NCBI GenBank assembly: GCA_016839945.1 | Contig: JAEOTE010000007.1 | Coordinates: 96,001 to 160,000 of the forward strand | Length of the DNA: 64,000 bases | Reading direction: 5' to 3' | Origin: Candidatus Heimdallarchaeota archaeon | GTDB lineage: Archaea > Asgardarchaeota > Heimdallarchaeia > Heimdallarchaeales > Heimdallarchaeaceae | Shown here: positions 1,111-63,546 of the stretch, piece by piece | How positions within the stretch are numbered: position 1 is the first letter of the stretch | Layout of the letters: each line of letters starts with the position of its first letter | Position numbers and translations under genes: made by a program | The notes under the pieces: model-generated | Database searches by the model: none | The model's input: the letters and a program-made list of their open reading frames with translations, nothing else | Told to the model about the DNA's origin: nothing

Positions 1111-1815
1111 ATGTCTTTGTATATTATACAATCAACAGGAGAAATGACTGAATGCGAAAATAAAGAGATTGCACTTTTATCTGAAAATGTTTTGCTTGTT
1201 ATTTCTCATAATCAAAAGAAAATCTATACATGGATAGGTAGAGCATCATCACCTCACTCTAAATTTGCTTGTGCAAGAGAAACAGCAAGAATTAGGATGG
1301 AATTGGGGTATAAAATAGTTAATTTAGAAGAAGAAGCTACAAATGATGATTTCTTAAGTGCAATAGATGAAGCGTGTAATATTACAGGAGCTGCAAAGCC
1401 AAAGCCAAAACCAAAACCAAAAGCAGAACCAAAACCAAAACCAAAAGCAGAACCAAAACCAAAGGCAGAACCTAAAACAAAAGCTACTACTTCAAAAGCT
1501 AAAACAGCTGCAAAGCCAAAACCGGAAAAAACAGAAACTAAACGAAGATATGAATCTGCAGAAGTAAAAACAAAAATTGTAGATGTAGAACACGTGTTAA
1601 AGCAACTAGAAATTCTTCAACCAATGGAGAATAATATTAGAGATTATGTTATTATAGGTGAAACATTATTTATTGCACCCGAAAACCTTGAAAAACCTGA
1701 TTCAGAATCAAAAGTGAGTCTTCCAGATGGATCCTTTGTTGCAGATGATTATATCCCAAGAATATTTTTAGAAAATGGAAAAATCATTGCAATAGAATTA
1801 TGGAGAGAAAACTAG
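1111..1815 (+). CDS. Gelsolin-like domain protein with a Pro/Lys-rich linker and a C-terminal small domain (1DGelX-like)
   Basis: N-terminal VLLVISHNQKKIYTWIGRASS...KFACA...IVNLEEEATNDDF matches the gelsolin repeat pattern (IYxWxG, helix, xxEGxE..F). It is followed by a PKPKPKAE linker and a ~75-aa C-terminal domain. Confidence 0.7.
   Translation: MSLYIIQSTGEMTECENKEIALLSENVLLVISHNQKKIYTWIGRASSPHSKFACARETARIRMELGYKIVNLEEEATNDDFLSAIDEACNITGAAKPKPKPKPKAEPKPKPKAEPKPKAEPKTKATTSKAKTAAKPKPEKTETKRRYESAEVKTKIVDVEHVLKQLEILQPMENNIRDYVIIGETLFIAPENLEKPDSESKVSLPDGSFVADDYIPRIFLENGKIIAIELWREN
1395..1475 (+). repeat. Coding tandem repeat (ccaaaa/gcagaa units) encoding KPKPKPKPKAEPKPKPKAEPKPKAEPK
   Basis: Directly visible hexamer/longer-unit repeats. 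Confidence 0.9.
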
Positions 1816-2345
1816 TAACCTTGTTTCTCCATCACTTGTTTAGCAATTATAGAATAAATGTCATTTACCCCTTCTCCCAATTTTGCAGAAGATTCAAGAA
1901 TTGTATAACCTTTAGAACCCCAAACCTCATTTGTTTCTTCTATTGATACTACTCGTTCATCATCTAAATCGGTTTTATTTCCAACGATTATTATTGGGAT
2001 ATCTGGGCATTTTTCTTCAACTTCTTCTATCCATTTCTCAATATGATCATGAGACTCTTTTCGAGTAACATCAAATACAATTACTGCACCATGAGCTCCA
2101 GTATAATATCTCTTACGGAGACTGACTAGCTTTTCTTGTCCCACTGTATCAAATAGTACAAGTTTAAGAACAGTATCTTCATCAAATTGTATTTTTTTAC
2201 TGTGAAAATCTACTCCTAAAGTAGGAAGATATGATGAAGAAAAGCGATTTTGAGTATAACGAACAGCTAGACTTGTTTTACCTACTGAATAATCTCCTAC
2301 ATTTATTATTTTGATAATGTAAGTAACATCTGGAGTAAGTGACAT
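1812..2345 (-). CDS. Rab-like small GTPase (Ras superfamily)
   Basis: G1 GDYSVGKTS, G2 PTLG, G3 DTVGQE, G4 NKTD, G5 SAK. RabF-like LGVDF, YYTGA, VFDVT. No C-terminal Cys motif. Start set at the internal ATG 2345 (ORF track 2378). Confidence 0.93.
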   Translation of the reverse strand: MSLTPDVTYIIKIINVGDYSVGKTSLAVRYTQNRFSSSYLPTLGVDFHSKKIQFDEDTVLKLVLFDTVGQEKLVSLRKRYYTGAHGAVIVFDVTRKESHDHIEKWIEEVEEKCPDIPIIIVGNKTDLDDERVVSIEETNEVWGSKGYTILESSAKLGEGVNDIYSIIAKQVMEKQGY

Positions 2346-2486
2346 TAAGATAGAATAACTTGAATTGTATTTTAGCATTTTGATAATATCAATTCAAAAA
2401 AGAAGTCTGTTTATATATCAAATTAGAATAAAGATGGAGTGAGGTTAATATTTTTAAATATTCAAACTCAAAAATAGTTATACTAC

Positions 2487-9980: not shown

Positions 9981-10041
9981 GAGTATCTGATTCTTAACCT
10001 TGCTAATAAACTTTAAAACTAACTTGTTGATTTCTCTTCCT

Positions 10042-10989
10042 ATGAATTCCAATCAATTTTCAAGAAAGGAGATTATACTTTCATACATTACAATTCTAAG
10101 ATTGGTTAATGGTTTAGTTGCAGGTACAGCAGCAGCTTTTGGAATTGTATTGTCTCTACCTTTAGGAGTAAAAGTAGATTACCTTACATTAGCCTTAGTT
10201 GTTATAGGAACAATATTCGTATCTTCACAAGCTATGATATTTAATGATATTTCAGATAGAGAAGAAGATAAAATAAATTCTCCACACAGACCATTACCTT
10301 CAGGGAAAATTTCTGTAAAAACAGCCAAGATTTATGGAATTATTTTCGTGGTTCTTGCGTTACTTACAGCTGTAGCGATTGATATAATTAATCCAGAATT
10401 ATATGGATTAACTGTAATTACTGCAATACTCTTTGGTGGTTCATTAGATCTCTACAACATTAAATTGAAAAAGATGGGATTCTGGGGAAACCTTACTATT
10501 GGAATTAATGTAGTAGCTCTTTTTGCATATGGTTCAATTCATACTTTTCTTATTCATACAGGAATTGGTTTACCATGGATTCCAATTGTGGTTGGGGCTT
10601 GTGCTGGGTCCGGAAATGTTGGTAGGGAAGTAATAAAAGGACTTCCTGATATCGAAGGAGATAGAGAAGCAGGTGTAAGAACAATTGCTGTTAAGTATGG
10701 TCCTAAGGTTACAGCAATAATAGGATCACTTTTTCTTTGGGGTTTAATCTCGGGAGCACTAATCGCTGCAATCCTACCAATGTTTGTAGAAACAACACCC
10801 CCTCTTTACTTAGCAAGTCAGATAATAGTTTATCTAATCGCCATATTAGCAACATTTCTAGCTATAGCAATACTATTTAACCAGAAACCCAAGTGGGCTT
10901 ACACTACTAAGGAGATACTATTGTTTGTTTTCTTAGCTTTCTTACTTGTATTTATCATTGATAAGATTGTAAGACTAGCTCTAGGTTAG
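10042..10989 (+). CDS. UbiA-family prenyltransferase, probable digeranylgeranylglyceryl phosphate synthase
   Basis: NDISDREEDKINSPHRPLPSG, YN.KLK, REVIKGLPDIEGDREAGVRTIA; multiple TM helices. Confidence 0.88.
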   Translation: MNSNQFSRKEIILSYITILRLVNGLVAGTAAAFGIVLSLPLGVKVDYLTLALVVIGTIFVSSQAMIFNDISDREEDKINSPHRPLPSGKISVKTAKIYGIIFVVLALLTAVAIDIINPELYGLTVITAILFGGSLDLYNIKLKKMGFWGNLTIGINVVALFAYGSIHTFLIHTGIGLPWIPIVVGACAGSGNVGREVIKGLPDIEGDREAGVRTIAVKYGPKVTAIIGSLFLWGLISGALIAAILPMFVETTPPLYLASQIIVYLIAILATFLAIAILFNQKPKWAYTTKEILLFVFLAFLLVFIIDKIVRLALG

Positions 10990-10994
10990 CAAAC

Positions 10995-11261
10995 TTATCT
11001 CTTTCTTATAACTTGATATACTAAAGGATTAAATGCATCTGGACACGCATGAGTAGATACATCTTTATCTTCTAACCAAGGAAATTCAGCTCCATAAGCC
11101 ATTGCAAATACTTTTGGCAAAACTGAATATAGAGCATGTAAACACACTTTCCCTTTAATTTCATTAGTGTCAAAATTTAGAACAATTTCGTCACCAACTT
11201 TGTGGTCAGCAGCACAGTTTCCTTCTTGACTTATTACTTTCAGAATTATTTCAAATGCCAT
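10995..11261 (-). CDS. TIGR04076-family small Cys-containing protein
   Basis: GNCAADHKVGD, KVCLHAL, ACPDAFNP pattern. Confidence 0.8.
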   Translation of the reverse strand: MAFEIILKVISQEGNCAADHKVGDEIVLNFDTNEIKGKVCLHALYSVLPKVFAMAYGAEFPWLEDKDVSTHACPDAFNPLVYQVIRKR

Positions 11262-11312
11262 GAAATTGCTCAAACTTCTAAATTTAAATACTTTATTCTT
11301 TTATAATAGAAT

Positions 11313-12389
11313 ATGAATGGGAAGTATGTGTATGATATTATCATTGAAGGAAACAATCTTACAGCTACAACTCTTGCATACTTTCTATCACTTAACTACA
11401 AAAACAAATCAATTGCTTTAATACAAAGAGAAGATGTACCAAATCGTTCATTCTTTACACCTAATATAGTTGCACCAGTTTTTGAATTATCTGATGAATT
11501 TATGAGTAGTGTTTTCAAAAGTAGTAAAGAAAAGCTAATAGAAGTGCATTCTATTTCAGGACATTTTGAATACTCTCAACTTTCACTAATTCTATTATAC
11601 AAAGAATTGGAAACGCAAGAAATAAGAAAAAATCATGAAAAAAAACTAACAAATTCTGAAATAAAGTATAAGCATTTATCACAAGAAGAGATTTCATCCT
11701 ATTATCCTTTCATCTCATCAGGAGAAGAGATTAAAATTACAGAAATCTATGAATCTTTTACCTGTTCAGATGTAAATGATTTAATGGTTGTTTTTCAAAA
11801 ATTAGCAGAGGAAAATGGAGTAGAAATAATAGGAAATGCGAGTAAGTTAAATTTCTATGAGAAAGAAGGTATTTTTGAAACGGAAGATAATGAATTTACT
11901 CCAAATGAGTTTTCAATAGTTACATCACCAGGATTTAATAGAATAAAAAGCATTGTTGACCAACAAGTTCTAAGAGTCACAACACCAATTCTTGAGAATT
12001 TTCCTAGAGTAAATCTTGTAGATGTTAGCACTCATACTCAAATGTGGTTAGAAGAATCAGGCTATTTCCAAATCTTCAGAGTTTTTAATGAGGTAGAAGA
12101 AAAGCAATGTGTTAAACAAATAAAAGATAATTTTAAAAGATTGTTTCCGTTGCTTGGAGTTTTACAAACAATTGATTCAAACTTCATAAATCTAAAAACA
12201 AATACTTCCTTAGAAGATTCTGTAGGAACTTTTGATAAGTCAAAAACATATTATTTTCATATTCCTTCTCAAATGGAATTATCAATTATTCCAAGTATAG
12301 CAGAAAGGTTTTCGATTTTACAAAAGAAAAATGAAACTGAATTTTTATCTGATATCTCGTTAAGAAAGATTCTTAGCTCAGAAAAATAA
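11313..12389 (+). CDS. Degenerate FAD-dependent oxidoreductase (DAO/glycine oxidase fold)-like protein
   Basis: YDIIIEGNNLTATTLAYFLS, LSQEEISSYYPFI, AEENGVEII match the DAO family layout, but GxGxxG is lost. Confidence 0.6.
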   Translation: MNGKYVYDIIIEGNNLTATTLAYFLSLNYKNKSIALIQREDVPNRSFFTPNIVAPVFELSDEFMSSVFKSSKEKLIEVHSISGHFEYSQLSLILLYKELETQEIRKNHEKKLTNSEIKYKHLSQEEISSYYPFISSGEEIKITEIYESFTCSDVNDLMVVFQKLAEENGVEIIGNASKLNFYEKEGIFETEDNEFTPNEFSIVTSPGFNRIKSIVDQQVLRVTTPILENFPRVNLVDVSTHTQMWLEESGYFQIFRVFNEVEEKQCVKQIKDNFKRLFPLLGVLQTIDSNFINLKTNTSLEDSVGTFDKSKTYYFHIPSQMELSIIPSIAERFSILQKKNETEFLSDISLRKILSSEK

Positions 12390-12398
12390 GTCAAGTTA

Positions 12399-14756
12399 TT
12401 ATTTTGAGTACTCTACTAGGAATTCATCAAATTTCATTTGTTTATCATGAAAATACCTCCTTAAAACTCTTGTATGAATCTTAAGAAGTTGTTTTGATAA
12501 ACTTGAGATTTTCTTATCTTTTGCAGCTGTTTTTATCAATACCAAAATTATTTCAGCATTTAATCCTCGAGATTTATTCGCAAAGGTTTTTCTTCCTTCA
12601 GCATTTAGTTTTTTCATTTCTTTAATAATGAATTTAGTACTTTCCTGTCCAAGATTATTCAGAGCTTTTATTCCTAGTTTATGTTCTTCCTCAACCACTT
12701 TTTTAACAGCTTCAGGAACGATAGATGTTTCTCTAGCTAATGAAAGGAGAATTACAAGTCTATCTTTAGTTTTGGTAGTTTTTATTTTACCATAGTATTT
12801 TTTCAGAGGATTAGCAGCATTTTTACCCATGTTTTTAATAACTTGCTGAAGATTGTTAAACCACCTTTCATCAGCTGTTTTTAATTTAGGAAGTATTATG
12901 TCAAGGATTTTGCTATCCATTTGACCAAGAGCTTTTATTGTGGATTTTACTAAGTTTTGATTAGGAGCTGATAATTTATCTGAAAGTTTTTTCACAATTG
13001 GAGCACCAATTTGAACTGCAGCATATACAGCTGCTTCTCTTACCAATATTTTTGGTCTTCTCATATTATCAATAATAACATCAACGACTCCTGGATCCTT
13101 TAACTCACCTAAAGCTCTTGTTGATATTTCAGCAATTGAATCATCATTATCTTTTGCTGCTCTTATTAATGTCATTAGTGCTCGTTTGTGTTTTATTTTT
13201 CTAAGAGATTCAACCGCTTTTCGTCTTAGATTTATATTTGGATCAGATAAAATTGATGAAAGAATTGGTACGGATTTTGCACCAAATTGGTTAAGAAGTT
13301 CACATGCTTTTTCTCTTATTATAGGATCGATTTCTTTCAAAGATTTCTCTAATAGTTGAAAAAGCTCATCATTTATATCTCTGAATTTACCTTTATGAAT
13401 AGCGAATGAATGCCCTAAATCTTGTAGTTCTTTTTCTGGATAATAGATGTACAAAATTGTACCTAACTTAACAACTTGAGGTAAATTAACATCCAATAAT
13501 CCATCGAGAGCCAGTTCAATGTTCTCATTACCGAAATAATGTAAAACTTCTATTGCGTTTTTTCTAAGTTGTAAATCATCTTCAGTTAATTCCTCTATTA
13601 GAACGCGAATTGAAGGTGTTCCAAGTGTGAGTAAAGCTTGTGTAACTGCTTCGATGATTGATGGATTCTTTCCTGCTAATTGTGTAGTTAATAAACGAAT
13701 TGCCCCTTCATACCCATATTTCTGGCTCATTACTAAAGTTAGACAATGAGCGGCATTTTTTCTTACATTTTTCTTCCCTTTATGAAGAGCATCCATTAAA
13801 TAATCATAGCTTTCATCACCAATTCTTTTCATAGTTTCAATAATAAAAGGTACATTTTTGTCCTCTTCAAGAGCAGTTATTAAATGGGGGAGAACACTCT
13901 CTCCAATCAGTGCTAACGATTTAGCAGCATAATATCCTGCTGGGTCACCTTTTTTGAATTGTTTAACTAAAATGGTTGTAGCCTTGGGACTCCCTAAATT
14001 ACCAAGAGCTTCGATTATAGATAGTTGAGTATCTATTGTATCATCAAAGTTAGATAATCTGTCAATGAGAATGCTAGAGTTCTTTGGATCATCAACATGC
14101 ATAAGAGCTAGAGATGCATATTTAACATGCTCTTGCTTATCTGTTTTTGAAACTAAAGTTCTAAGTTCTTTCACTATTAAATGAGTTAATTCCGGATATT
14201 TGGTTAATGTGAGTAAGGTAAGCTCTGGAAAAGTAGGATTGAATTGATTCATTCTAAAAGCTAATATCTTTTTTATGCTCTTAGGATGCTCTGATATAAA
14301 GTTAAAATCTATGAAGGTTTCTTCATAGTTCGAAAAAGAAGAATAACAAGTTCTTGCAGAAAGTTCAGCTAGAGTTGAAGAAACGGGTGTTACTGAATAT
14401 GATGCTTTGATTGAATTGAATATATCTCCAGGTTTAAGCGATGTTATAATTTCACAAAGAATTTCAAAGCTCTCTTCTTTAACTAAGTAATCTGCTAGAA
14501 GAGAGATAAAATGATCAAGCTTTTCAATAATCACTTCTCGGATTTGAGGATCAGGTTTTTTTATGTATGCTTTTAGAATCTTCTCTGTAGGAACATAGGA
14601 GGTACTGAAAAGCAGTTTGAGTGCATTTCTTCTAATAATGACATCATTGTCTACTAAAAAATCAACCAAAATATCATAATCTTTTATATTTTCTAATTTT
14701 ATTTTTTCAATCTCATCTTCCTCATGGAGAAGAAGTTTCAATTGCTCCTTATTCAA
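12399..14756 (-). CDS. HEAT-repeat (PBS-lyase-like) alpha-solenoid protein
   Basis: Repeated units such as VRKNAAHCL, LRKNAIEVL, IREKACELL, LRRKAVESL, VREAAVYA. Confidence 0.88.
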   Translation of the reverse strand: MNKEQLKLLLHEEDEIEKIKLENIKDYDILVDFLVDNDVIIRRNALKLLFSTSYVPTEKILKAYIKKPDPQIREVIIEKLDHFISLLADYLVKEESFEILCEIITSLKPGDIFNSIKASYSVTPVSSTLAELSARTCYSSFSNYEETFIDFNFISEHPKSIKKILAFRMNQFNPTFPELTLLTLTKYPELTHLIVKELRTLVSKTDKQEHVKYASLALMHVDDPKNSSILIDRLSNFDDTIDTQLSIIEALGNLGSPKATTILVKQFKKGDPAGYYAAKSLALIGESVLPHLITALEEDKNVPFIIETMKRIGDESYDYLMDALHKGKKNVRKNAAHCLTLVMSQKYGYEGAIRLLTTQLAGKNPSIIEAVTQALLTLGTPSIRVLIEELTEDDLQLRKNAIEVLHYFGNENIELALDGLLDVNLPQVVKLGTILYIYYPEKELQDLGHSFAIHKGKFRDINDELFQLLEKSLKEIDPIIREKACELLNQFGAKSVPILSSILSDPNINLRRKAVESLRKIKHKRALMTLIRAAKDNDDSIAEISTRALGELKDPGVVDVIIDNMRRPKILVREAAVYAAVQIGAPIVKKLSDKLSAPNQNLVKSTIKALGQMDSKILDIILPKLKTADERWFNNLQQVIKNMGKNAANPLKKYYGKIKTTKTKDRLVILLSLARETSIVPEAVKKVVEEEHKLGIKALNNLGQESTKFIIKEMKKLNAEGRKTFANKSRGLNAEIILVLIKTAAKDKKISSLSKQLLKIHTRVLRRYFHDKQMKFDEFLVEYSK

Positions 14757-15352
14757 GGAGTCTTCCCCCTCATATCTTTCCGATATTGCAAGTAATTTAT
14801 AATCTCAGTTCCTAGTTCCTCAAAAGCATTTTGAACATTTTCCCCAGTTTTGGCAGAAGTTTCAAAATACTTTACTTTGAATCCTTTGGATCCGTAGCTA
14901 GAATTCAGTTCTTCTATGAATTTCATAACTCTCTCACTTACTGATTCCCTTCTACTTTTTGAAATAAGATCCATTTTATTCCCTAATATGAAGAAAGGTA
15001 CAATACCTCTTTCAGTTCCCTTTTCAAGTTCTTTAACCCATTTTTCTAATTTCTTTAGAGTTGTTATCTTGGTTGCATCAAACACCATTAGTGCACCTAA
15101 TGCTCCTCTATAATACATCATTCTTACTTTCTCAAAGATATCTTGACCGGCTATATCCCAGATTTGATACAAAATAGAGATGTTGTTTACCGTCTTTGGT
15201 AATGATGCAAAATCTGCTCCTATTGTTTCTAAATGATTAGTAATAAAACTCTCGCCAAGATAAGATCTTCTAAGACTTGTTTTTCCAACTGCTCCTTCTC
15301 CCGCAAGAATAACCTTCAAGTAAAGTTTCTGTCCATAACTCACATTATTCAC
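14753..15352 (-). CDS. Rab-like small GTPase (Ras superfamily)
   Basis: GEGAVGKTS, TIGADF, QIWDIAGQ, YYRGA, NKMD, ETSAKTG. Confidence 0.93.
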   Translation of the reverse strand: MNNVSYGQKLYLKVILAGEGAVGKTSLRRSYLGESFITNHLETIGADFASLPKTVNNISILYQIWDIAGQDIFEKVRMMYYRGALGALMVFDATKITTLKKLEKWVKELEKGTERGIVPFFILGNKMDLISKSRRESVSERVMKFIEELNSSYGSKGFKVKYFETSAKTGENVQNAFEELGTEIINYLQYRKDMRGKTP

Positions 15353-17124
15353 GTCTTTTTATTTGATGCAATATTTCCTTCTTCATTAATTCTACCTAGT
15401 TTCTTATTTAAGAATTTAAACATTGAGGAAAGAGGAGAAAAAAGAGTAAAAATTAGTACAAAAGAACCTAGTAAAATTGTTAGAAAATAGAGAAATCCAC
15501 CATTGAGTATCAAGCCTAGATTTGGAGTTATTATCATTCCAACAATGAAATTATTTGCTACATGTAGGAAAATTGCAGCGTGTAATCCATATTTATAGAA
15601 TGCATATCCAAAAACCAATCCTGCTACAGCTGCTTGAACTATTTTCCCTTCTAACCAATTACCTGGATGATAATGGACATAACCAAAACAAAATGATGAA
15701 AATATCAGAAAAACAAAATCAAAGAATTCAAATTTTTTCCATCTTCCAGTTAAATAAAGAAGAGGATTTTTTAATTCTCTTTCAGTTAGAAATTTTGTTA
15801 ATTTCGACTTCTGCTTATTCTCTTTTCTTCTTCTTAACATTATAAATTGGACGATTTTTATACAAACAAAATATAAGCCATTGAGTACAAACAAAGGTAG
15901 TCCAAATAAGATCCATCGGTAGGTAATTTCTTCATGAAAACCAGCCCAAAATGCTCTAGACATTTCAACATAAAGCTGATCAAGATCAATAGAAATTTGT
16001 GATATAATTGGAACCCCTAGATTCATTAGAATTGTTATTAAAAGAGTTGAAAGAGCAATATTCAAGCAGAGTAAGTTTATAACCGGAATTAAATCACTCT
16101 TTTTAGCAGTGGAAATAAGTTTTGAAAATCTACTCCTTTTTGATTCAGGAATTCTTTCAACAGGGATATATCCTTCATAATTAATTTTTTGATTAAGAAT
16201 ATTGAAAGCTATGTTATCAAGTGAATCTTCTTCCAAAAATTTATCTTCTTTTGATATCTTTTCCTTTTCTTTTTTATCTTTAGGAAGATAAATTAAAAGA
16301 AATAGAATTCCAAAAAGAGCTAAAGACATAAGCGATTGAGCAAGTTTCCAGTCAACTATTATTGATTTAGGTAATTCTATAAATTTGAAGAAATCCTGCC
16401 TAAAACCTGTAGAAGGATTATAACTATATTCAAAATTTGGGAAAGTAAAAATTAAAGTTTCAACTCTACTTGATGCAGGAATAGATGGATAGATAATAAA
16501 GACAAGTAGATTGGCTAGTAATAGAGATAAGCCAATGAATAACATCATATTATTCCACTTGTTTTTAATGGAATATTCAACTTGTCTTACAGCTGATTCT
16601 ATACCAAGTTCTGGTTTGTCTGGGATTAAAACCTCTTTATAAAAAAGGAGACCAAGGTGTTTCTCTATCCCGGAATACAGGAATATTCCAACAAGTATAC
16701 TAAATAGCGATAATTGAATTAATTCTAAGAGGGTGATAGAGATATTTGTCAACACAGATATTGTATTGAGAGAGGAGAAATAAATAACTAGAGAGTATGC
16801 ACCTACTCCAAGATAGAAGGGTAAAAAGAAAAGGAATACACTCTTCAACGGTTGATCTTTCCTATCGATATCATTCTTAACAAACCATCTTCTAAAGAGC
16901 CAACCATAAATTATAAATGTTATAATTGCAAGAAAATATAACAAAATTGTGTAATAGGATATTGATGGAAAGTATGCTTTTAGTACAACATTTAAAGTAG
17001 TTAAAACACTAACAATTGTTACTATAATTAAAGAATGAAATAAAAAATTCTGAAATCTCATTAGTACCAATTGTCCTTTTTTAAGTAACGTCTCAATTCT
17101 TATCAAGTTATAGGTATTTATCAA
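15349..17124 (-). CDS. CPBP-family (Rce1/type II CAAX protease-like) intramembrane protease with extended N-terminal multi-TM region
   Basis: AGFHEEITYRW (EExxxR), FGYVHY (FxxxH), AAIFLHVANN (HxxxN). Real start may be ATG 17061. Confidence 0.85.
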   Translation of the reverse strand: MINTYNLIRIETLLKKGQLVLMRFQNFLFHSLIIVTIVSVLTTLNVVLKAYFPSISYYTILLYFLAIITFIIYGWLFRRWFVKNDIDRKDQPLKSVFLFFLPFYLGVGAYSLVIYFSSLNTISVLTNISITLLELIQLSLFSILVGIFLYSGIEKHLGLLFYKEVLIPDKPELGIESAVRQVEYSIKNKWNNMMLFIGLSLLLANLLVFIIYPSIPASSRVETLIFTFPNFEYSYNPSTGFRQDFFKFIELPKSIIVDWKLAQSLMSLALFGILFLLIYLPKDKKEKEKISKEDKFLEEDSLDNIAFNILNQKINYEGYIPVERIPESKRSRFSKLISTAKKSDLIPVINLLCLNIALSTLLITILMNLGVPIISQISIDLDQLYVEMSRAFWAGFHEEITYRWILFGLPLFVLNGLYFVCIKIVQFIMLRRRKENKQKSKLTKFLTERELKNPLLYLTGRWKKFEFFDFVFLIFSSFCFGYVHYHPGNWLEGKIVQAAVAGLVFGYAFYKYGLHAAIFLHVANNFIVGMIITPNLGLILNGGFLYFLTILLGSFVLIFTLFSPLSSMFKFLNKKLGRINEEGNIASNKKT

Positions 17125-17227
17125 TTTTTATTTTTCTCCTCAAACGGAAAAACTTTTAAAAGTTCTTCATGCAATTTAACAATACTCAATTTACGTACAA
17201 TTGATAACTGGTTTACAGGTGAAAAAA

Positions 17228-17644
17228 ATGAGTAAAAAAGAAACAGATGAAAAAGTAGACGCAAAAGAAGAAGTCGAAGAAGAAGTCGAAGAAGAAGTCA
17301 AAGAAGAAGTCAAAGAAGAAAAAAAAGCGACTAAAAAGGCAGCTCCTAGGAAAAAAGAAGAAAGCCAAATAATCTATATCGGAAAGAAAAATACTATTAG
17401 CTATGTGCTTGTAGCAGTAACAATATTAAACAAGAGTGATACTTGCGCTATCCAGGCAAGAGGAAGACAAATTTCAAAAGCCGTAGATGTCGCAGAAATA
17501 ACTCGAAGAAAATTCCTACAAGATATGGTTGAAGTATCAAAGGTTGAAATAGGTTCCGAAGAGCTCATGAGTGATAGGGAAGGGGAAGAGCCAACTACTA
17601 AAACTGTGTCTACAGTAGAAATAGTCCTGAAGAAAAAGAAATAG
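17228..17644 (+). CDS. alba: DNA/RNA-binding protein Alba with acidic N-terminal extension
   Basis: IYIGKKNTISYVLVA, ARGRQISKAVDVAE, VEIGSEE, VSTVEIVL. Confidence 0.93.
   Translation: MSKKETDEKVDAKEEVEEEVEEEVKEEVKEEKKATKKAAPRKKEESQIIYIGKKNTISYVLVAVTILNKSDTCAIQARGRQISKAVDVAEITRRKFLQDMVEVSKVEIGSEELMSDREGEEPTTKTVSTVEIVLKKKK
17267..17320 (+). repeat. Coding 12-bp tandem repeat (gaagaagtcgaa/gaagaagtcaaa) encoding EEVE/EEVK
   Basis: Directly visible. Confidence 0.85.
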
Positions 17645-34936: not shown

Positions 34937-36193
34937 TTAATTTTCGCTATTTTCTGCTCTTACTTTAATAAGATAGTTAGGTTTTTCCCATATAACATCC
35001 AAATCTGAAAGGTCTATGGTTCCCATACTCTCCTCATTTTCACCATAAATTTCTACAAAAATCTTCGAAAACAAATCATATTTACCCAAGATTTGATTTG
35101 GTAACATGTTACTTGTGAAAATTCCTCTAATAAGCGCACCATTTGTTCTCTTAGGAAGGATTGAGAACATTACATCAAGGTTCGAGTAATTTCTTCTAAT
35201 CTTCTGATATTCCTTTGTAATTAATCCTTGGTTACCTGGCTGGATTACTAGGAAACCTCTAGTGGATTGATCCTCTGTTATGAAGTTCCAAGCAAGTTTA
35301 TTATTTTCTATTAACTTCGATAATACAGGATTATTGTCATAAACATCGACTGAATATATTAAGCAAGGTCCTTTTGTTTCGTTGAAGATTCTTAGAAAAT
35401 TACTTAAATCTATATGGTAGAACTCTGAGGGTGTTTGTGATGCAATAAGAAGATCTGAAATAATATGAGCCTCTCTATCATATAGTTTAGATTTCAAGAT
35501 ATCTAAATCTACATTCGTATTGGCTTTTATTAAGCTATTTTCATCATACAAAATAAAGGGTACATCAATATCTGTTGATTCTTTCATTAACCTATGAATG
35601 GTTGTAAGAACATTGAATTCTTGGATTATCTCTATCTCATGTGGTGGAATATGAAAAGACAAGATAGGCTGAAGGTTTTTTTCTTTTAGGTATTCAACTA
35701 TTTTAGTTATTAACCCAATAGTAAAAGCATCGTTTTCTACAAATATGAAAATAAGAGAGGTATCTTTAAATTGTTTGTTTAATTCTTGTGTTACTTTTTC
35801 TTTATTCTCCTCAAACCATGCAATTCCTCTTGAAAAAGTATTTTCCAACAATTTCAATGTAGGAGTCTCAAGAAAAGGAATGTTAGCACCTAAATCTTGT
35901 GATAGGTTTGAACGAGAAATCAAAAGTGAGGACGGAAACTTATCTTTAATTTGATTATTCATCGCTTTAAGAATCTCAAACCCATAATTTTCAGTAAATA
36001 TTAAACCAGAGGAGATTTTATTAATCTCAGCTTCTACAAAAAGTGTGTCTGATGATTCGCTTCCAGATAATTGTTTATCTGTCGTTTTGCTTTGTTTTAT
36101 TATTGATTCAAAATTAAAACTATAAAGTGCATTATATTTTTCAGGAGGATCTCCCTCTATTTTTTTTCCTTTTTTTCTGAATAGCGCTTTCAT
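34937..36193 (-). CDS. Degenerate tubulin/FtsZ-superfamily paralog lacking the GGGTG loop
   Basis: Colinear similarity to 39142..40281: VPFILYDENSL vs CPVILFDNEKL; HIDLSNF vs NANLKDF; RGFLVI vs LGYLTI; IRGIFT vs IRGILT. Confidence 0.6.
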   Translation of the reverse strand: MKALFRKKGKKIEGDPPEKYNALYSFNFESIIKQSKTTDKQLSGSESSDTLFVEAEINKISSGLIFTENYGFEILKAMNNQIKDKFPSSLLISRSNLSQDLGANIPFLETPTLKLLENTFSRGIAWFEENKEKVTQELNKQFKDTSLIFIFVENDAFTIGLITKIVEYLKEKNLQPILSFHIPPHEIEIIQEFNVLTTIHRLMKESTDIDVPFILYDENSLIKANTNVDLDILKSKLYDREAHIISDLLIASQTPSEFYHIDLSNFLRIFNETKGPCLIYSVDVYDNNPVLSKLIENNKLAWNFITEDQSTRGFLVIQPGNQGLITKEYQKIRRNYSNLDVMFSILPKRTNGALIRGIFTSNMLPNQILGKYDLFSKIFVEIYGENEESMGTIDLSDLDVIWEKPNYLIKVRAENSEN

Positions 36194-59052: not shown

Positions 59053-62000
59053 TCATTTTGCTTCTTCGATTGCAGCTAGAATGATTTGAGCTGTTCTTTG
59101 ACGGATAGCATATATTTGTTCCTTAATTTCAGCCAAAGATTTTTGTGATTTTAGTTTAGAAATAAGCTCATCAATTTCATTATAAATAAACTCGCTGTAA
59201 CTTAAAAGATAATTACCAAAATCAGCTTGAGTAAGCATAATAATTGATAAATTTTCATACCCTCCTCTTGCAGTTTCTTTCTCAATTTGAATAGCATGAA
59301 CAAAACCAATAAGGCCTTCATTAGGAAGATTCATAGCACTAATTTTCCTTCCTTGATGAACATCCTCAAAACCTAAGGCAGAATAAGATTGATCACATAT
59401 TTTAAGTAAGAAATTCTCTGTTCCTACATTGAACATCCCTCCATAATCGTACTCAAAAGAATGATCACTAATCAAAGGAATTGGACCTTTTTTCTGTTCA
59501 AAGATACTTAAAACTACTCCAGGACAAATTTCATTTAATCTCCTTATAAGGTCCTGTGATTCCACTTTTTCAAGATATTTTTCAAATGGTTTTCTCTTTG
59601 TAGCTTTATAGACTATAAACGATACTAAAGCAAGAAGAAGAATACTTGCACCAATCATAGAATAGAGTAAAACAGGGGATAATCCAGCTTTTATTGTTTT
59701 AACAATTTCTTCATATTCAAAATGTACATCCCCCAATATTTCTGAACCTTCGAAAGTTGCAGAAATTGCTATCTGTTCGATTTCTTCAGATAAAAGAAAG
59801 TCAACTGATGCTATTCCATCTGAACTTGTTATATCAGATTTAGTAACAAATTCATCGTATCCTTCTATAAGTGCATTCACAGTTCCTCTATCAGATTTAT
59901 AGAAGATAAAAATGATAAAGGAAACTTCAAAACCAGCAACAGGGGTACCATTGAGAAATGTTAGATTTCCAGTAATAACAACTGAGCTACCAACAACTAT
60001 TTCTAAATTGGAAACAGAGATAGATAATTCTAAAGGAATTGGATTAATAGTTATTTCATAGCTTTGACTCTTATTTGTACGACCAAAATAGAAGGCAGAT
60101 TCAGCTTCAATAAGTAGAGTGAAATTCCCTTTGTAATCAACAAGAGTTGAAGGAAAACAAAACTGATAAATGAAATCACTTAGCTTTTGGAAATACATCA
60201 ATGTTCCATTTGCGATTATTTTTGTTACTTCAAGTTCATTCATTAATTCATCTAACAAATTTATAGTAATAGTGATATTTTCTCCATAAATACATGAATT
60301 TTCACTAGCTTCTAGTACAGTTAGACTTCCTTCTTTCTTAATTGTAAATGAAAGAACAAGCTCAATCTCATTTGGTGAAGTTCCTTCGCCTGTATTGTCT
60401 CTTAGAATGATTGTTAGATTGTATAATCCAACTAAAGCTGGAACTTGAATTAGCCAAGGATCGTTCAAAATCTGTCCTGTATCATTATTCCAATAATAAA
60501 TAAATAATGATAAATCAAGGGTAGTTGTATTATCATACCAGAGTTCTGATCCAGCTTCAAGATAGTTAAAAGTTGAAGCATCAACATATTCTCCTAAATC
60601 ATCATCGAAAACGTAAAGAGTTGATTCAGGAGGAGTAAAATCAACCTCAAAATTAAAGAGATAGGTATTATTGTTTCCAACTACATCTTCAGCAAAGATT
60701 GCTAAGATTGCAATCTCACCTGTTGAATAAAGTGGCATAAGGTTTACTTCAAAATCACCACTACTATCAATAATAACCTCAAGTGGGAATCCAGGGAGAG
60801 CATCCCAATAAAATTGAATAAATTCTATAGTTTGTTTTGAAACATCAGCAGCATTGAAAAGAAGGCTTGTATCATCGTTAATTGAAGAGTATTCAAATGG
60901 GAAGGTGAGTGTGATTTCTGGTGCTTGGCTATCGATTGTTAGCTCATAAATTATAATTTCTTCATTACCTAATGAATCACTTGCGTTTATGATAAGTACA
61001 CCATACCCATCACTATAATCTAAAATTATTGTATCAGTAAATATCAAATACCCAGATCCAGCCCAAGAGTATGTTGACATAACACTAGAATCATCATCTG
61101 TTATAGAAAATTGAATAGTAGAATTGTACGAAACAAATATAGAACCACTAGGTAGAGTTACTAATCCTTCGAAGCTGATAATTGTTATAACTGGAGCATT
61201 TGAATCAACTAAGAAATAGATAAACTGGATTGCACTATTTCCTGCTATATCAAATACATAAAGTGTGAAATTGTGATATCCATCTAACAAAGAAGATAGA
61301 ACAATTTCAAATGGGGAAACAAGAGTAATATTATCCTGTCCATCAATAGAAACTAAAACATATAAGTTCTCAACTAAAGTAGCATTATCAGAGAGAATAA
61401 GATTAAGCACATCTGAATTCTTAAAACGCCCACCATCATAATCCAGAATTGAAGAGTCTATTACAGGATTTTCTTGATCTATTCTAAACTCAAAGACAAA
61501 AATATATTCTTGATGATCTATAGAACCAACAATAATAGTAAGGTAGTGAATTCTGCTAGAATCAGTTGGAAGAGCATTTATACCATCCAATGTAAGAATT
61601 TGTCCTCCAACAAGATATGGATTGCCATTTTGAAAAGAGTCTTCATTCCATTTGAAAAGTAGAGTACCATTTGTGCCACTTATTGTCACTTCAACTTCAT
61701 TCCCCCCTTGATACCATGATTCATTCAGCATATCTCTCAACTCTACAAGAAGAGTACCGCTACTAACATTGAATCTATAAAATTGGGAAGAGAAGTTATT
61801 AAACACATCTTCAGCTGTAACTGTAAGATTATGATATCCTTCAGTTTCAGGTAAGTATGTTCGGTAGATGGTTTCTTCGCTAGGAGACCAAGGTAAGAAG
61901 ATATTATCATCCCATTTATAATAAACATCTAAACTTTGAGAAAAATCTGTGATATTTACTTCTATCAGCTTTCCAGCTGCTTGAACAGTATCATTTAGAA

Positions 62001-63411
62001 CATTATCAAGAGAGATAATTGGAGAATTAGAATCAATACCAAAATAATAGAAATAATATTCTGTAATAAAGGTGTCATTCATGCAAATAGAGAGCTCATG
62101 ATAACCTTCATCAAAGGGAACAGACAAATTATTACCAGGTAGTGCAAGTAAGTCAATTATTGTTCCATTGTTATCCCATTCTGCCGTAAGATTATTTGCT
62201 CCAAATACTGTGAAATCAAGAAATGAGGTTGATTCTATAATTGTATCATTAGAAGGATTATTTAGTATAAGATAGCTTTCTGTTGGATCATAACCTATGT
62301 CATATACTTCAATTGCAGTATTATTATAATCATCATTCGCTCTTACTTCGAGATAATGCCAACCTTCTGTTGTAGGTAAGGTTGTATTACATGTATCAGT
62401 AAATGGTGTGTAACTATCTAAATCCCATCTATAAGAGCTACTTGTTGCTCCAGAGACAGTTATTTGGATATCTCTTTCTTCATAATAATAAGAGGAATTT
62501 GTTATGCCTATAACTTCAATCTCAGGGTAAGTAGCACTCTTATGATAAATCTGCATTCCTAAAATTCTATCATATGCGCTAAAACTATAACTATTAGAAT
62601 ACACACCATCGATAATATCCCAAGAATATTGTCCGCCTGATTTGTGGCTAGAAGTTAATCCTACTTCTGCCCAAGCACTTAAATCTGAAACTTTCCCTTC
62701 AAACGTAAGTTTTAATCTATTTCCAGAAGGTATTATGTATGTATCATTGAGTGTTAGTTCAAAGACTTTCTTATTTGCCATTGACATCCCATGAGGAAGA
62801 ATTTCTTCATGCGATGCGATTTCTGTAATATTACCAATAGTTGGGTTGAATATAGATACCCTCACTCTAATAGTAAAATCAACAGTATCATAATAATAAG
62901 TAGATATATGAGAAAGGACATGTATCTTTCCTTTTATATTTGTAGATTCAGAGAAAACAGGTGAAAACATACTAGAGTTAATGTAAGGGGAAGTTTCTTC
63001 AGTAAGAGGATAATAGGTGTCAACTTGATCTGGCCAAGTTTGAGGTTCTGTTTCATCCATAAGGAAAGTAGTAGTGAGTGTTGAAGGAGCATTATTTCTC
63101 ATAGTTTCATATTTTTCGAGAACATAGACAGATCCATCGTTGTCTAAATCCACAAATTCGTTATGAGTAAAAAAACCATTGAGAATATAATCTCCTTCAA
63201 TAAATGTACTTGATAGTACACCTGGAGGTTTACCTTTATATCCAGTTTTAATTGAATCCACATTACTGATAGGATTTGATGATACAATCTGGTCATCTTG
63301 AACTATTGATATTTCATCTAGTTCAGGAAAAGATAGTTCATAGTAAACTAATGAGTTAAAAAAAGAAAAAATGATAATAAAAGCAATAATTGTGTTTAAA
63401 TTCCTCTGCAT
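59053..63411 (-). CDS. Large surface receptor-like protein: signal peptide, Ig-like repeats, single TM, cytoplasmic uDENN/longin-like domain
   Basis: Repeats of Y.WD...LP..EG.H.L.V.A.D..NN and D...P.I; TM LLYSMIGASILLLALVSFIVY; cytoplasmic VVLSIFEQKKGPIP...ARGGYENLSIIML. Start probably ATG 63411. Confidence 0.75.
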   Translation of the reverse strand: MQRNLNTIIAFIIIFSFFNSLVYYELSFPELDEISIVQDDQIVSSNPISNVDSIKTGYKGKPPGVLSSTFIEGDYILNGFFTHNEFVDLDNDGSVYVLEKYETMRNNAPSTLTTTFLMDETEPQTWPDQVDTYYPLTEETSPYINSSMFSPVFSESTNIKGKIHVLSHISTYYYDTVDFTIRVRVSIFNPTIGNITEIASHEEILPHGMSMANKKVFELTLNDTYIIPSGNRLKLTFEGKVSDLSAWAEVGLTSSHKSGGQYSWDIIDGVYSNSYSFSAYDRILGMQIYHKSATYPEIEVIGITNSSYYYEERDIQITVSGATSSSYRWDLDSYTPFTDTCNTTLPTTEGWHYLEVRANDDYNNTAIEVYDIGYDPTESYLILNNPSNDTIIESTSFLDFTVFGANNLTAEWDNNGTIIDLLALPGNNLSVPFDEGYHELSICMNDTFITEYYFYYFGIDSNSPIISLDNVLNDTVQAAGKLIEVNITDFSQSLDVYYKWDDNIFLPWSPSEETIYRTYLPETEGYHNLTVTAEDVFNNFSSQFYRFNVSSGTLLVELRDMLNESWYQGGNEVEVTISGTNGTLLFKWNEDSFQNGNPYLVGGQILTLDGINALPTDSSRIHYLTIIVGSIDHQEYIFVFEFRIDQENPVIDSSILDYDGGRFKNSDVLNLILSDNATLVENLYVLVSIDGQDNITLVSPFEIVLSSLLDGYHNFTLYVFDIAGNSAIQFIYFLVDSNAPVITIISFEGLVTLPSGSIFVSYNSTIQFSITDDDSSVMSTYSWAGSGYLIFTDTIILDYSDGYGVLIINASDSLGNEEIIIYELTIDSQAPEITLTFPFEYSSINDDTSLLFNAADVSKQTIEFIQFYWDALPGFPLEVIIDSSGDFEVNLMPLYSTGEIAILAIFAEDVVGNNNTYLFNFEVDFTPPESTLYVFDDDLGEYVDASTFNYLEAGSELWYDNTTTLDLSLFIYYWNNDTGQILNDPWLIQVPALVGLYNLTIILRDNTGEGTSPNEIELVLSFTIKKEGSLTVLEASENSCIYGENITITINLLDELMNELEVTKIIANGTLMYFQKLSDFIYQFCFPSTLVDYKGNFTLLIEAESAFYFGRTNKSQSYEITINPIPLELSISVSNLEIVVGSSVVITGNLTFLNGTPVAGFEVSFIIFIFYKSDRGTVNALIEGYDEFVTKSDITSSDGIASVDFLLSEEIEQIAISATFEGSEILGDVHFEYEEIVKTIKAGLSPVLLYSMIGASILLLALVSFIVYKATKRKPFEKYLEKVESQDLIRRLNEICPGVVLSIFEQKKGPIPLISDHSFEYDYGGMFNVGTENFLLKICDQSYSALGFEDVHQGRKISAMNLPNEGLIGFVHAIQIEKETARGGYENLSIIMLTQADFGNYLLSYSEFIYNEIDELISKLKSQKSLAEIKEQIYAIRQRTAQIILAAIEEAK

Positions 63412-63546
63412 TCTTGAACGCCTAAATTGTGGCTTTATCCCCAGTTCCTTTGTCATAAAGAAAAGGTAATACAATTTTAACTATAGACTCATAGATAATT
63501 TAAGTAATATTATAATTGCAACTAGAAAAATAGAATACAATAAATA

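Follow-up and report, generated by a model that had tools for sequence, protein, structure and literature searches.

In eukaryotes, small GTPases are paired with long alpha-solenoids, as in Ran with importin-beta and in Arf1 with the adaptin trunks of AP-1 and COPI, and the armadillo protein SmgGDS pairs with GTPases bearing polybasic tails; in bacteria, MglA-MglB constitutes a prokaryotic small-GTPase gene module. For Asgard archaea, a putative operon harboring a LAMTOR1-like Roadblock gene, a Rab-like GTPase gene, and a DENN gene has been described (10.1101/2020.10.19.343400), and the GTPases of these organisms are seldom found in operons with regulators (Tran et al., PMC10933270). The CPBP membrane proteins (Pfam: PF02517) form a large prokaryotic CPBP/Abi family, for which "Rce1-like" is only the Pfam name. 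In this family, the catalytic dyad pairs the His of motif 2 with the first of the two motif-1 Glu residues, the oxyanion hole is built from the His and Asn of motif 3, and the second motif-1 Glu joins the Arg of that motif in a structural salt bridge that noncatalytic members share with catalytic ones (PMC13692083). Many CPBP proteins act without catalysis, and noncatalytic CPBP membrane scaffolds of Gram-positive bacteria are documented in SpdC and in Abx1 and CflP, the latter two with CovS (PMC13692083). Here, we describe a three-gene operon encoding a CPBP-fold membrane protein, a small GTPase of Rab-like type, and a HEAT solenoid, located in a stretch of 64,000 nucleotides (nt) of DNA (G000:C89:96001-160000, hereafter the window; ~31% G+C) from a genus within Heimdallarchaeaceae. 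Comparative analysis leads us to conclude that the GTPase-HEAT pair is a putative conserved functional unit to which the CPBP gene appears to have been added in Heimdallarchaeaceae. Our literature search found no paper on this operon or on a GTPase-HEAT pair in Asgard archaea.

The locus resembles both the Roadblock/DENN operon and MglA-MglB in placing a Ras-superfamily GTPase beside a presumed regulator or partner, whereas its partners are a HEAT solenoid and a CPBP protein and its distribution is much narrower. It likewise recalls the eukaryotic pairs in combining a small GTPase with a long alpha-solenoid, the Heimdallarchaeaceae GTPase having, in addition, a basic C-terminal tail; however, the HEAT protein is of prokaryotic type by profile and gives generic fold matches, so that this likeness stays at the fold level. 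As for the membrane protein, SpdC/SagB (PDB: 6u0o), Abx1, and CflP/CovS (PMC13692083) belong to the same fold family and keep the Glu-Arg pair of motif 1 with catalytic residues dispensable or lost, as in the motif-less orthologs detailed below. Those proteins act by binding and tuning another protein at the membrane, and a comparable binding is presumed here; what they bind is a hydrolase of the cell wall or a sensor kinase, in contrast to the small GTPase and solenoid of the present locus. The CPBP protein analyzed here further differs from them in four extra N-terminal helices, in two large basic inserts, and in that most of its orthologs retain all motifs.

The three genes lie on the minus strand, as do all features below for which no strand is given, and the longest forms of their open reading frames (ORFs) in the window ORF list span 15349-17124, 14753-15352, and 12399-14756. 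Gene 1 (15349..17061) encodes a 570-residue, 12-helix membrane protein with a CPBP fold, delimited from the ORF, the ortholog alignment A2, an AlphaFold model, and PF02517. Gene 2 (14753..15352) encodes the Rab-like small GTPase, recognized by Pfam Ras, solved relatives, and a motif alignment, and gene 3 (12399..14756) a 785-residue HEAT solenoid, recognized by Pfam HEAT_2, PBS-lyase-type HEAT, its structural model, and the alignments A1 and A4. Since a divergent Alba gene (17201-17644, plus strand) borders the genes upstream and a convergent flavin adenine dinucleotide (FAD) oxidoreductase-like gene borders them downstream, its end at 12389 separated by 9 bp from the stop of HEAT, the operon comprises exactly three genes. 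The preliminary description of this DNA had reported three co-directional, tightly coupled minus-strand genes joined by 4-nt overlaps, and both tetranucleotides are present where it placed them: GTGA (15349..15352), in which the stop of gene 1 overlaps the first possible start of gene 2, and TTGA (14753..14756), in which the stop of gene 2 overlaps the start of gene 3. The co-direction and coupling hold, as does the second overlap, whose HEAT TTG start is supported by the homologous start position of 16/16 aligned orthologs (A1) and by a GGGGG run (14765-14769) 8 nt upstream of it. At the first junction, several GTPase orthologs start at a codon matching the second GTG (15343) and others have ATG there; the GTPase therefore probably starts at 15343, which would leave a 5-nt gap in place of the GTGA overlap, and the CPBP/GTPase junction is tight under either start. 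The GTPase thus measures 199 residues from GTG 15352 or 196 from GTG 15343. In A2, orthologs of gene 1 match a start at ATG 17061 and not the longer form from TTG 17124, giving ~570 residues instead of 591.

Outside Heimdallarchaeaceae, the GTPase and HEAT genes recur side by side. A HEAT profile run against the 83 genomes of the class yielded full-length matches only in this family (30/30) and in G025, the single genome of a second family, where a GTPase 45% identical to that of the window (P0002; the CPBP protein of the window is P0001) precedes an 826-residue HEAT protein at locus L071 and the gene upstream is not CPBP. An exhaustive profile search of 1.8 billion representatives for relatives of the HEAT protein recovered the co-linear full-length sequences P0020, P0088, P0105, and P0131, the latter three as single stretches of ~770-840 residues; P0088 has ten close relatives, one of them labelled Hodarchaeales. 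We read seven outside contexts (L071, L099, L100, L101, L122, L123, and L124), and in all seven a Ras-family GTPase gene stands directly upstream of the HEAT gene on the same strand and is separated from it by 17-91 nt; at the six loci outside G025 this upstream gene is of the Ras/Arf/Roc family, 17-47 nt from HEAT. No CPBP gene was found upstream of the pair in L071, L099, and L101, the three contexts with readable upstream DNA, and the flanks of the outside pairs are unlike those of the window, with ribonuclease P (RNase P) and L15e upstream in one case and small unknown genes in another. A chance adjacency of GTPase and HEAT genes was rejected, given the recurrence of the pair in these seven contexts; in the window genome (G000), the GTPase gene of the operon is the only one of the 24 Ras-like genes to adjoin any of the seven HEAT genes. 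On a tree including 16 G000 paralogs, all HEAT-linked GTPases fall into one group with two paralogs (support of 94 in the Shimodaira-Hasegawa-like approximate likelihood ratio test, SH-aLRT), those of Heimdallarchaeaceae on a long, fully supported stem, a topology compatible with a single origin of the HEAT-linked GTPases.

Other genes accompany the outside pairs. A radical S-adenosylmethionine (radical-SAM) gene converges on the HEAT end in L099, L101, L122, L123, and L124 (5/6 loci), matching PF19864 and PF04055 in four of these and PF04055 alone in L099, and in four of the five it is followed by a hexapeptide/GMPPB_C gene; this adjacency could reflect a linkage or just local synteny. In G025, the gene upstream of the pair (L071, 1767-2723, plus strand) encodes a 318-residue protein with a CxxC...CPVCG zinc-ribbon-like tail; the window genome encodes an ortholog of it (C18_1301_2221, 268 bits) that shows no linkage with the operon.

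The designation of the GTPase as Rab-like was borne out by its Pfam Ras match (132 bits, 1.9e-38) and by its best solved relatives, namely Ypt51/Rab5 (5.5e-30), Rab7, Rab11, and the Thorarchaeota Rab 7ezb (1.7e-26). The motifs G1 (GEGAVGKT, 15278-15301), switch I (TIGADF, 15209-15226), G3 (WDIAGQ, 15143-15160), G4 (GNKMD, 14969-14983), and G5 (TSAK, 14849-14860) are invariant across 19 aligned sequences, the catalytic Gln included. The protein ends, as had been noted earlier, in ...DMRGKTP without CAAX or CC: its basic tail RKDMRGKTP (14756..14782) is cysteine-free, and no C-terminal prenylation cysteine occurs in the last 30 residues. Every Heimdallarchaeaceae ortholog has the tail pattern R-K/R-x-x-R, which the HEAT-linked GTPases from other lineages lack. 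In the CPBP-less lineages, the GTPase opens with M(xx)GFFRKKK, after which comes a long, basic extension of low complexity, and the GFFRKKK element is absent from the GTPases of Heimdallarchaeaceae. An N-terminal GFFRKKK in the one group against a C-terminal basic tail in the other agrees with an altered route of the switch to the membrane, and the two elements may represent two solutions for bringing an unlipidated switch there. The closest paralog of the HEAT-linked GTPases in G000 (C169, 298-987, plus strand) adjoins ribosomal-protein-like genes, not HEAT; it carries a Lys/Glu-rich N-terminal extension of ~50 residues and ends in ...KFSCD, and may be a duplicate that kept the N-terminal extension.

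The HEAT protein matches Pfam HEAT_2 (PF13646; 124.7 bits, 1.8e-36) in five stretches as well as the PBS-lyase-type HEAT family (PF03130), and its all-helical model reaches a predicted local distance difference test (pLDDT) value of 90.0, with ~25 repeats and ~50 helices. The most conserved stretch (A1 and A4) comprises residues ~326-420, with KGKKNVRKNAA...YGYEG and LGTPSIRVLIEEL located at 13587-13781. A profile search of solved chains gave alphaRep and PBS-lyase-type matches, by which the repeats are classified as of the prokaryotic PBS-lyase/alphaRep type. A likeness to karyopherins and adaptins, which had been invoked for this protein, is drawn from the generic HEAT solenoid fold: SF3B1, mTOR, CAND1, transportin, and importin-beta were among many long solenoids matched by Foldseek with a template modeling (TM) score of ~0.2, no karyopherin-beta (importin-beta family) chain was listed in the profile search at E 1e-5, and the window protein had no match to Adaptin_N (PF01602) at E 0.01. 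Among its relatives, only P0088 passes the Adaptin_N threshold (42.1 vs 37 bits), and P0131 scores 29 bits. When the HEAT protein and the GTPase were folded as a complex, each with its own alignment, the score was 0.41 and that of the best of three controls 0.00; a score of 0.41 is reached by 58/80 solved complexes and 2/110 mismatched pairs, and among scores that reach 0.41 without exceeding 0.60 there are only 7/80 solved complexes along with both passing mismatches. Between runs, at least 67% of the contacts coincide, and the pLDDT of the partner is 74. The prediction lends weak support to direct binding of the HEAT protein by the GTPase, and gene order and complex score together modestly raise the odds that the two bind.

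Within Heimdallarchaeaceae, the pair is joined by the CPBP gene. Searches with P0001 retrieved a full-length relative from 23/24 other genomes of the genus and none from the 16 genomes searched in three further families of the order. The order CPBP-GTPase-HEAT was observed in 20/20 fetched loci of the same genus and in four other genera (25/25 loci with the window), and the source names of the orthologous proteins in the sister genus include Candidatus Heimdallarchaeum endolithica and aukensis. Across the 20 same-genus loci, identity amounts to 31-50% for the CPBP protein, 67-74% for the GTPase, and 55-63% for the HEAT protein. In the 24 related loci, the GTPase/HEAT junction measures -4, 0, or +1 nt wherever both genes are whole, in all but one (+24), with the -4 overlap at 15/23 measured junctions; the CPBP/GTPase junction ranges from -4 to +39 nt, apart from a value of -14 where the contig start cuts the CPBP gene. 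Conservation of the triplet, for which the preliminary description had proposed a check across Asgard genomes, thus holds for five genera of Heimdallarchaeaceae and was found in no other family searched, the GTPase-HEAT pair occurring elsewhere without CPBP. G010, of the same genus and 86% complete, is the only genus genome matching neither CPBP nor full-length HEAT, which is probably an assembly gap.

The AlphaFold model of the CPBP protein, numbered from the ATG at 17061, contains 12 long helices (pLDDT 76.8). The full-length protein had no Pfam match at E 0.01, and its C-terminal half scanned alone (residues 340-591) matches PF02517 with 37.7 bits (cut-off 22.4, E 2.5e-9); in the whole-genome scan gene 1 scores 39 bits, the weakest PF02517 match of the four CPBP genes in the genome, the three others being ordinary. 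By helix map, an N-terminal extension of ~4 transmembrane helices (residues 1-141, 16639..17061), with a conserved YGW..RRWF (16882-16908), precedes an 8-helix CPBP fold (residues ~159-552, 15406..16587) delimited by ESM Atlas structure matches and by the match to SpdC. The extra helices announced earlier as a multi-transmembrane N-terminal half accordingly exist, and they number only ~4. No relative of the extension was found outside Heimdallarchaeaceae: a word-based search with residues 22-300 returned 10 proteins, all from close relatives, and an ESM Atlas feature search with the same residues gave no usable match. Archaeal CPBP clusters of the ESM Atlas aligned over 276-304 residues with TM scores of 0.64-0.73 by target, the alignments beginning no earlier than residue 159 or 176. 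Among solved structures, Staphylococcus aureus SpdC gave the only specific match to the model (6u0o_A; Z 7.0, root-mean-square deviation 5.0, 161 residues, model range 207-511; VIA-align). The other VIA-align matches, mostly generic helical hairpins over residues 8-141 (Z 6.8-7.8), were set aside, and a Foldseek comparison of the whole model with the PDB gave no match at E 0.001, only transporters with TM ~0.1.

Two charged inserts interrupt the CPBP fold. Loop 1 (residues 263-321, 16099..16275), identified by hydropathy and charge count, contains 14 Lys or Arg and 11 Asp or Glu residues, varies in length in A2, has pLDDT <50 at residues 263-273 and 294-305, and is probably cytoplasmic. Loop 2 (residues 411-443, 15733..15831), with 12 Lys or Arg by charge count, lies between motifs 1 and 2 and terminates in the conserved NPLLYLTGRWKK (pattern NPLxYLTGRWKK, 15733-15768), with N432, L437, G439, and W441 invariant in A2. 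Because the Pfam match covers 137 residues for 82 profile positions, loop 2 appears as an insert relative to the PF02517 family, and it represents a candidate cytoplasmic docking site. The positive-inside rule would put both basic inserts in the cytoplasm and the motifs near the outer leaflet, and solved Rce1 opens to the cytosol; the orientation of the CPBP protein was not used as evidence.

The presence of all three CPBP motifs, already reported for this protein, was confirmed together with their coordinates: motif 1 is EEITYR (EExxxR; residues 377-382, 15916..15933), motif 2 FGYVH (FxxxH; residues 459-463, 15673..15687), and motif 3 HVANN (HxxxN; residues 500-504, 15550..15564). The E-E...R of motif 1 is invariant in 25 orthologs, and 18/25 kept all catalytic motifs. 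The other seven (L023-L029) make up a single subclade within the genus; they carry Gln in place of the motif-2 His, Asn in place of the motif-3 His, and Ser or Glu in place of the motif-3 Asn, and they keep EExxxR. These motif-less orthologs are full-length, with a ratio of nonsynonymous to synonymous substitution rates (dN/dS) of ~0.26 (0.25-0.30, calculated from unsaturated dS), versus 0.12-0.24 in the motif-bearing clades. Across loci, dN/dS is 0.05-0.07 for the GTPase and 0.10-0.17 for HEAT, and the partners of the motif-less proteins are as constrained as elsewhere (GTPase ~0.06, HEAT ~0.16). Motif loss, purifying selection, and unchanged partners, taken together, imply that at least part of the CPBP role in the operon needs no catalysis, and argue for the CPBP protein being a scaffold or anchor.

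These observations describe a real, conserved gene arrangement, a lineage-specific elaboration of a module of GTPase and partner, for which a plausible mechanism can be drawn. The Rab-like GTPase would act as a nucleotide-dependent switch, and the ~800-residue HEAT solenoid as its direct partner, whether effector, scaffold, or regulator; the two would form an older module, inherited together in Heimdall-group Asgard archaea. The 12-helix CPBP protein would be a younger partner, placed directly upstream in Heimdallarchaeaceae and made with the pair, serving mainly to receive or anchor the cytoplasmic GTPase-HEAT complex at the membrane, with docking probably through its two basic loops and its C-terminal tail. 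Proteolytic activity would come second to this role, and one subclade would have given it up. We favor this reading, of an older GTPase-HEAT switch module and a younger CPBP membrane anchor in one operon, tentatively and with slightly less than even confidence, and several observations weigh against it. The complex prediction gave the score above, which is weak support, and returned no interface. A phylum-wide HEAT profile search of 400 genomes, in which only two candidates per genome were scored, gave no full-length match outside this family and that of G025 (f1 and f2), a weak negative. The other outside contigs carry the labels "Odinarchaeota" and "Thorarchaeota" of their depositors, which are unverified, and upstream DNA is present in 3/7 outside contexts. 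The GTPase of G025 lacks both basic elements, N-terminal and C-terminal, taken here to bear on membrane targeting, and its best match in G000 is a different paralog (201 vs 176 bits); P0002 finds the HEAT-linked copy as its best match in G025, and the orthology is half-reciprocal. With motifs retained in most orthologs, proteolysis may matter in most species. Finally, the wider neighborhood is conserved as well, comprising RadA through UbiA, the small ORF, and the oxidoreductase-like gene, with Alba and Top6 upstream. The whole region being syntenic in the family, the invariant gene order is by itself weak evidence, and the adjacency of CPBP could in part reflect inherited gene order.

This synteny is also what a second explanation draws upon, according to which only the GTPase-HEAT pair is functional and the CPBP gene an unrelated neighbor, co-transcribed through conserved gene order. 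The pair without CPBP in other lineages agrees with it, as do the CPBP/GTPase junction, looser than the GTPase/HEAT junction, and the much faster evolution of the CPBP protein. The upstream edge of the operon, however, is variable: in the window and in g10, Top6A is followed by Alba; in g12, Top6A directly borders the CPBP gene and Alba gave no match; and in Heimdallarchaeum (g11), Alba is on the operon strand and Top6A gave no match within 5 kb. The triplet remains intact despite these three upstream arrangements, which lends the linkage some independent weight; CPBP is attached in all five genera, with an intergenic space never above ~40-50 nt. Moreover, its divergent 12-helix form accompanies the pair always, in 23/24 other genomes of the genus and in four genera, and was found in no other family searched. 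We consider an unrelated neighbor doubtful, though still a serious possibility.

A third explanation holds the CPBP protein to be an active glutamic intramembrane protease acting on a membrane or exported substrate, which the GTPase-HEAT pair would gate or position from the cytoplasm. The three motifs of the window protein and of most orthologs, the CPBP fold recovered in structure matches, and the translational coupling of the genes all speak for it. Against it stand the seven-species subclade, in which the catalytic His and Asn were lost from a gene under purifying selection with unchanged partners, the lack of any candidate substrate gene in the operon, and the many noncatalytic members of the family (PMC13692083). 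A protease regulated in this way is unlikely in our judgment. The earlier suggestion that the GTPase regulates the protease instead of being its substrate belongs in part here; its non-substrate half fits the data, and regulation of a protease is as improbable as the explanation to which it belongs.

We give next to no credence to a proto-CaaX scheme, in which the protease would trim the GTPase C-terminus as an ancestral Rce1 acting on Ras/Rab: Rce1, a type II CaaX prenyl endopeptidase whose substrates are prenylated Ras/Rab proteins (MmRce1, PDB: 4cad), has the same three motifs, and family names (PF02517 "Rce1-like", Ras/Rab-like) and the adjacency of a Ras-superfamily GTPase are all that speak for the scheme, but the GTPase tail has no cysteine and a CaaX end occurs in 0/24 Ras-like ORFs of the genome, the protein prenyltransferase family PF00432 was not found in G000 (genome 88% complete), the CPBP partner was found in just one family of archaea, the seven species that lost catalytic residues show an unchanged GTPase tail, and sequence searches of solved structures with the CPBP profile and with the C-terminal half gave no match, Rce1 included. 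The UbiA gene at 10000-10989 belongs to a membrane prenyltransferase family, not to the protein prenyltransferases, and gives no support for protein prenylation. Matches to ICMT (PF04140) in the genome were weak and numerous and were judged uninformative. The module that the preliminary description had proposed, linking an Rce1-type protease with a Ras GTPase before prenylation-dependent processing, does not survive the missing CaaX, the single family, and the motif loss; an ancestral Rce1-Ras link is rejected, and the operon is not a forerunner of eukaryotic CaaX processing, on whose origin it has no bearing.

Further features were recorded around the operon. The Alba product has ~50 extra N-terminal residues, its Pfam match covering residues 57-119 only. 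Downstream, the UbiA-family prenyltransferase gene (plus strand), a conserved 92-residue ORF without Pfam match (10995-11273), and the fast-evolving FAD-oxidoreductase-like gene (11313-12389, plus strand; 23-43% identity among relatives) keep their positions across Heimdallarchaeaceae. A second Ras-family GTPase gene of the window (1812-2378; Pfam Ras 3e-48) falls into a different paralog group on the tree and lies between an ORF without Pfam match and a family-2 glycosyltransferase gene, with no HEAT or CPBP neighbor seen. At E 1e-4, Pfam gave no match for two more ORFs, of 1473 residues (59053-63474) and 418 residues (34937-36193).

Ras-superfamily GTPases number in the dozens in Asgard archaea, with 24 in the genome analyzed here, and almost none can be assigned to a partner, because their genes are rarely in operons (PMC10933270). 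Gene order across unrelated neighborhoods here names a candidate partner, the HEAT solenoid, and in one family a membrane protein as well, which places the operon among the few in which gene order ties an Asgard GTPase to partners. It is quite unlikely, albeit of wider consequence, that the GTPase-HEAT pair is a prokaryotic survivor of the eukaryotic theme in which a membrane GTPase recruits a HEAT solenoid, as Arf does with the adaptin and COPI trunks. If true, the switch in its GTP state would draw the solenoid onto the membrane, where something would be gathered or shaped, with membrane attachment provided by the GFFRKKK element (Hodarchaeales-type) or by a dedicated CPBP-fold receptor (Heimdallarchaeaceae), and the pair would offer, in the archaea most closely related to eukaryotes, an ancestor-like model of how coat adaptors are recruited, reduced to a minimum of two parts. 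Under the favored reading of a switch module with a CPBP membrane anchor, the operon would be an archaeal example in line with the emerging view of proteins of the CPBP fold as often being membrane scaffolds, not proteases, and its motif-bearing and motif-less orthologs offer a natural comparison. With three defined proteins, it provides a testable entry point to the binding partners of small GTPases in Asgard archaea and to their route to membranes in the absence of lipid anchors.

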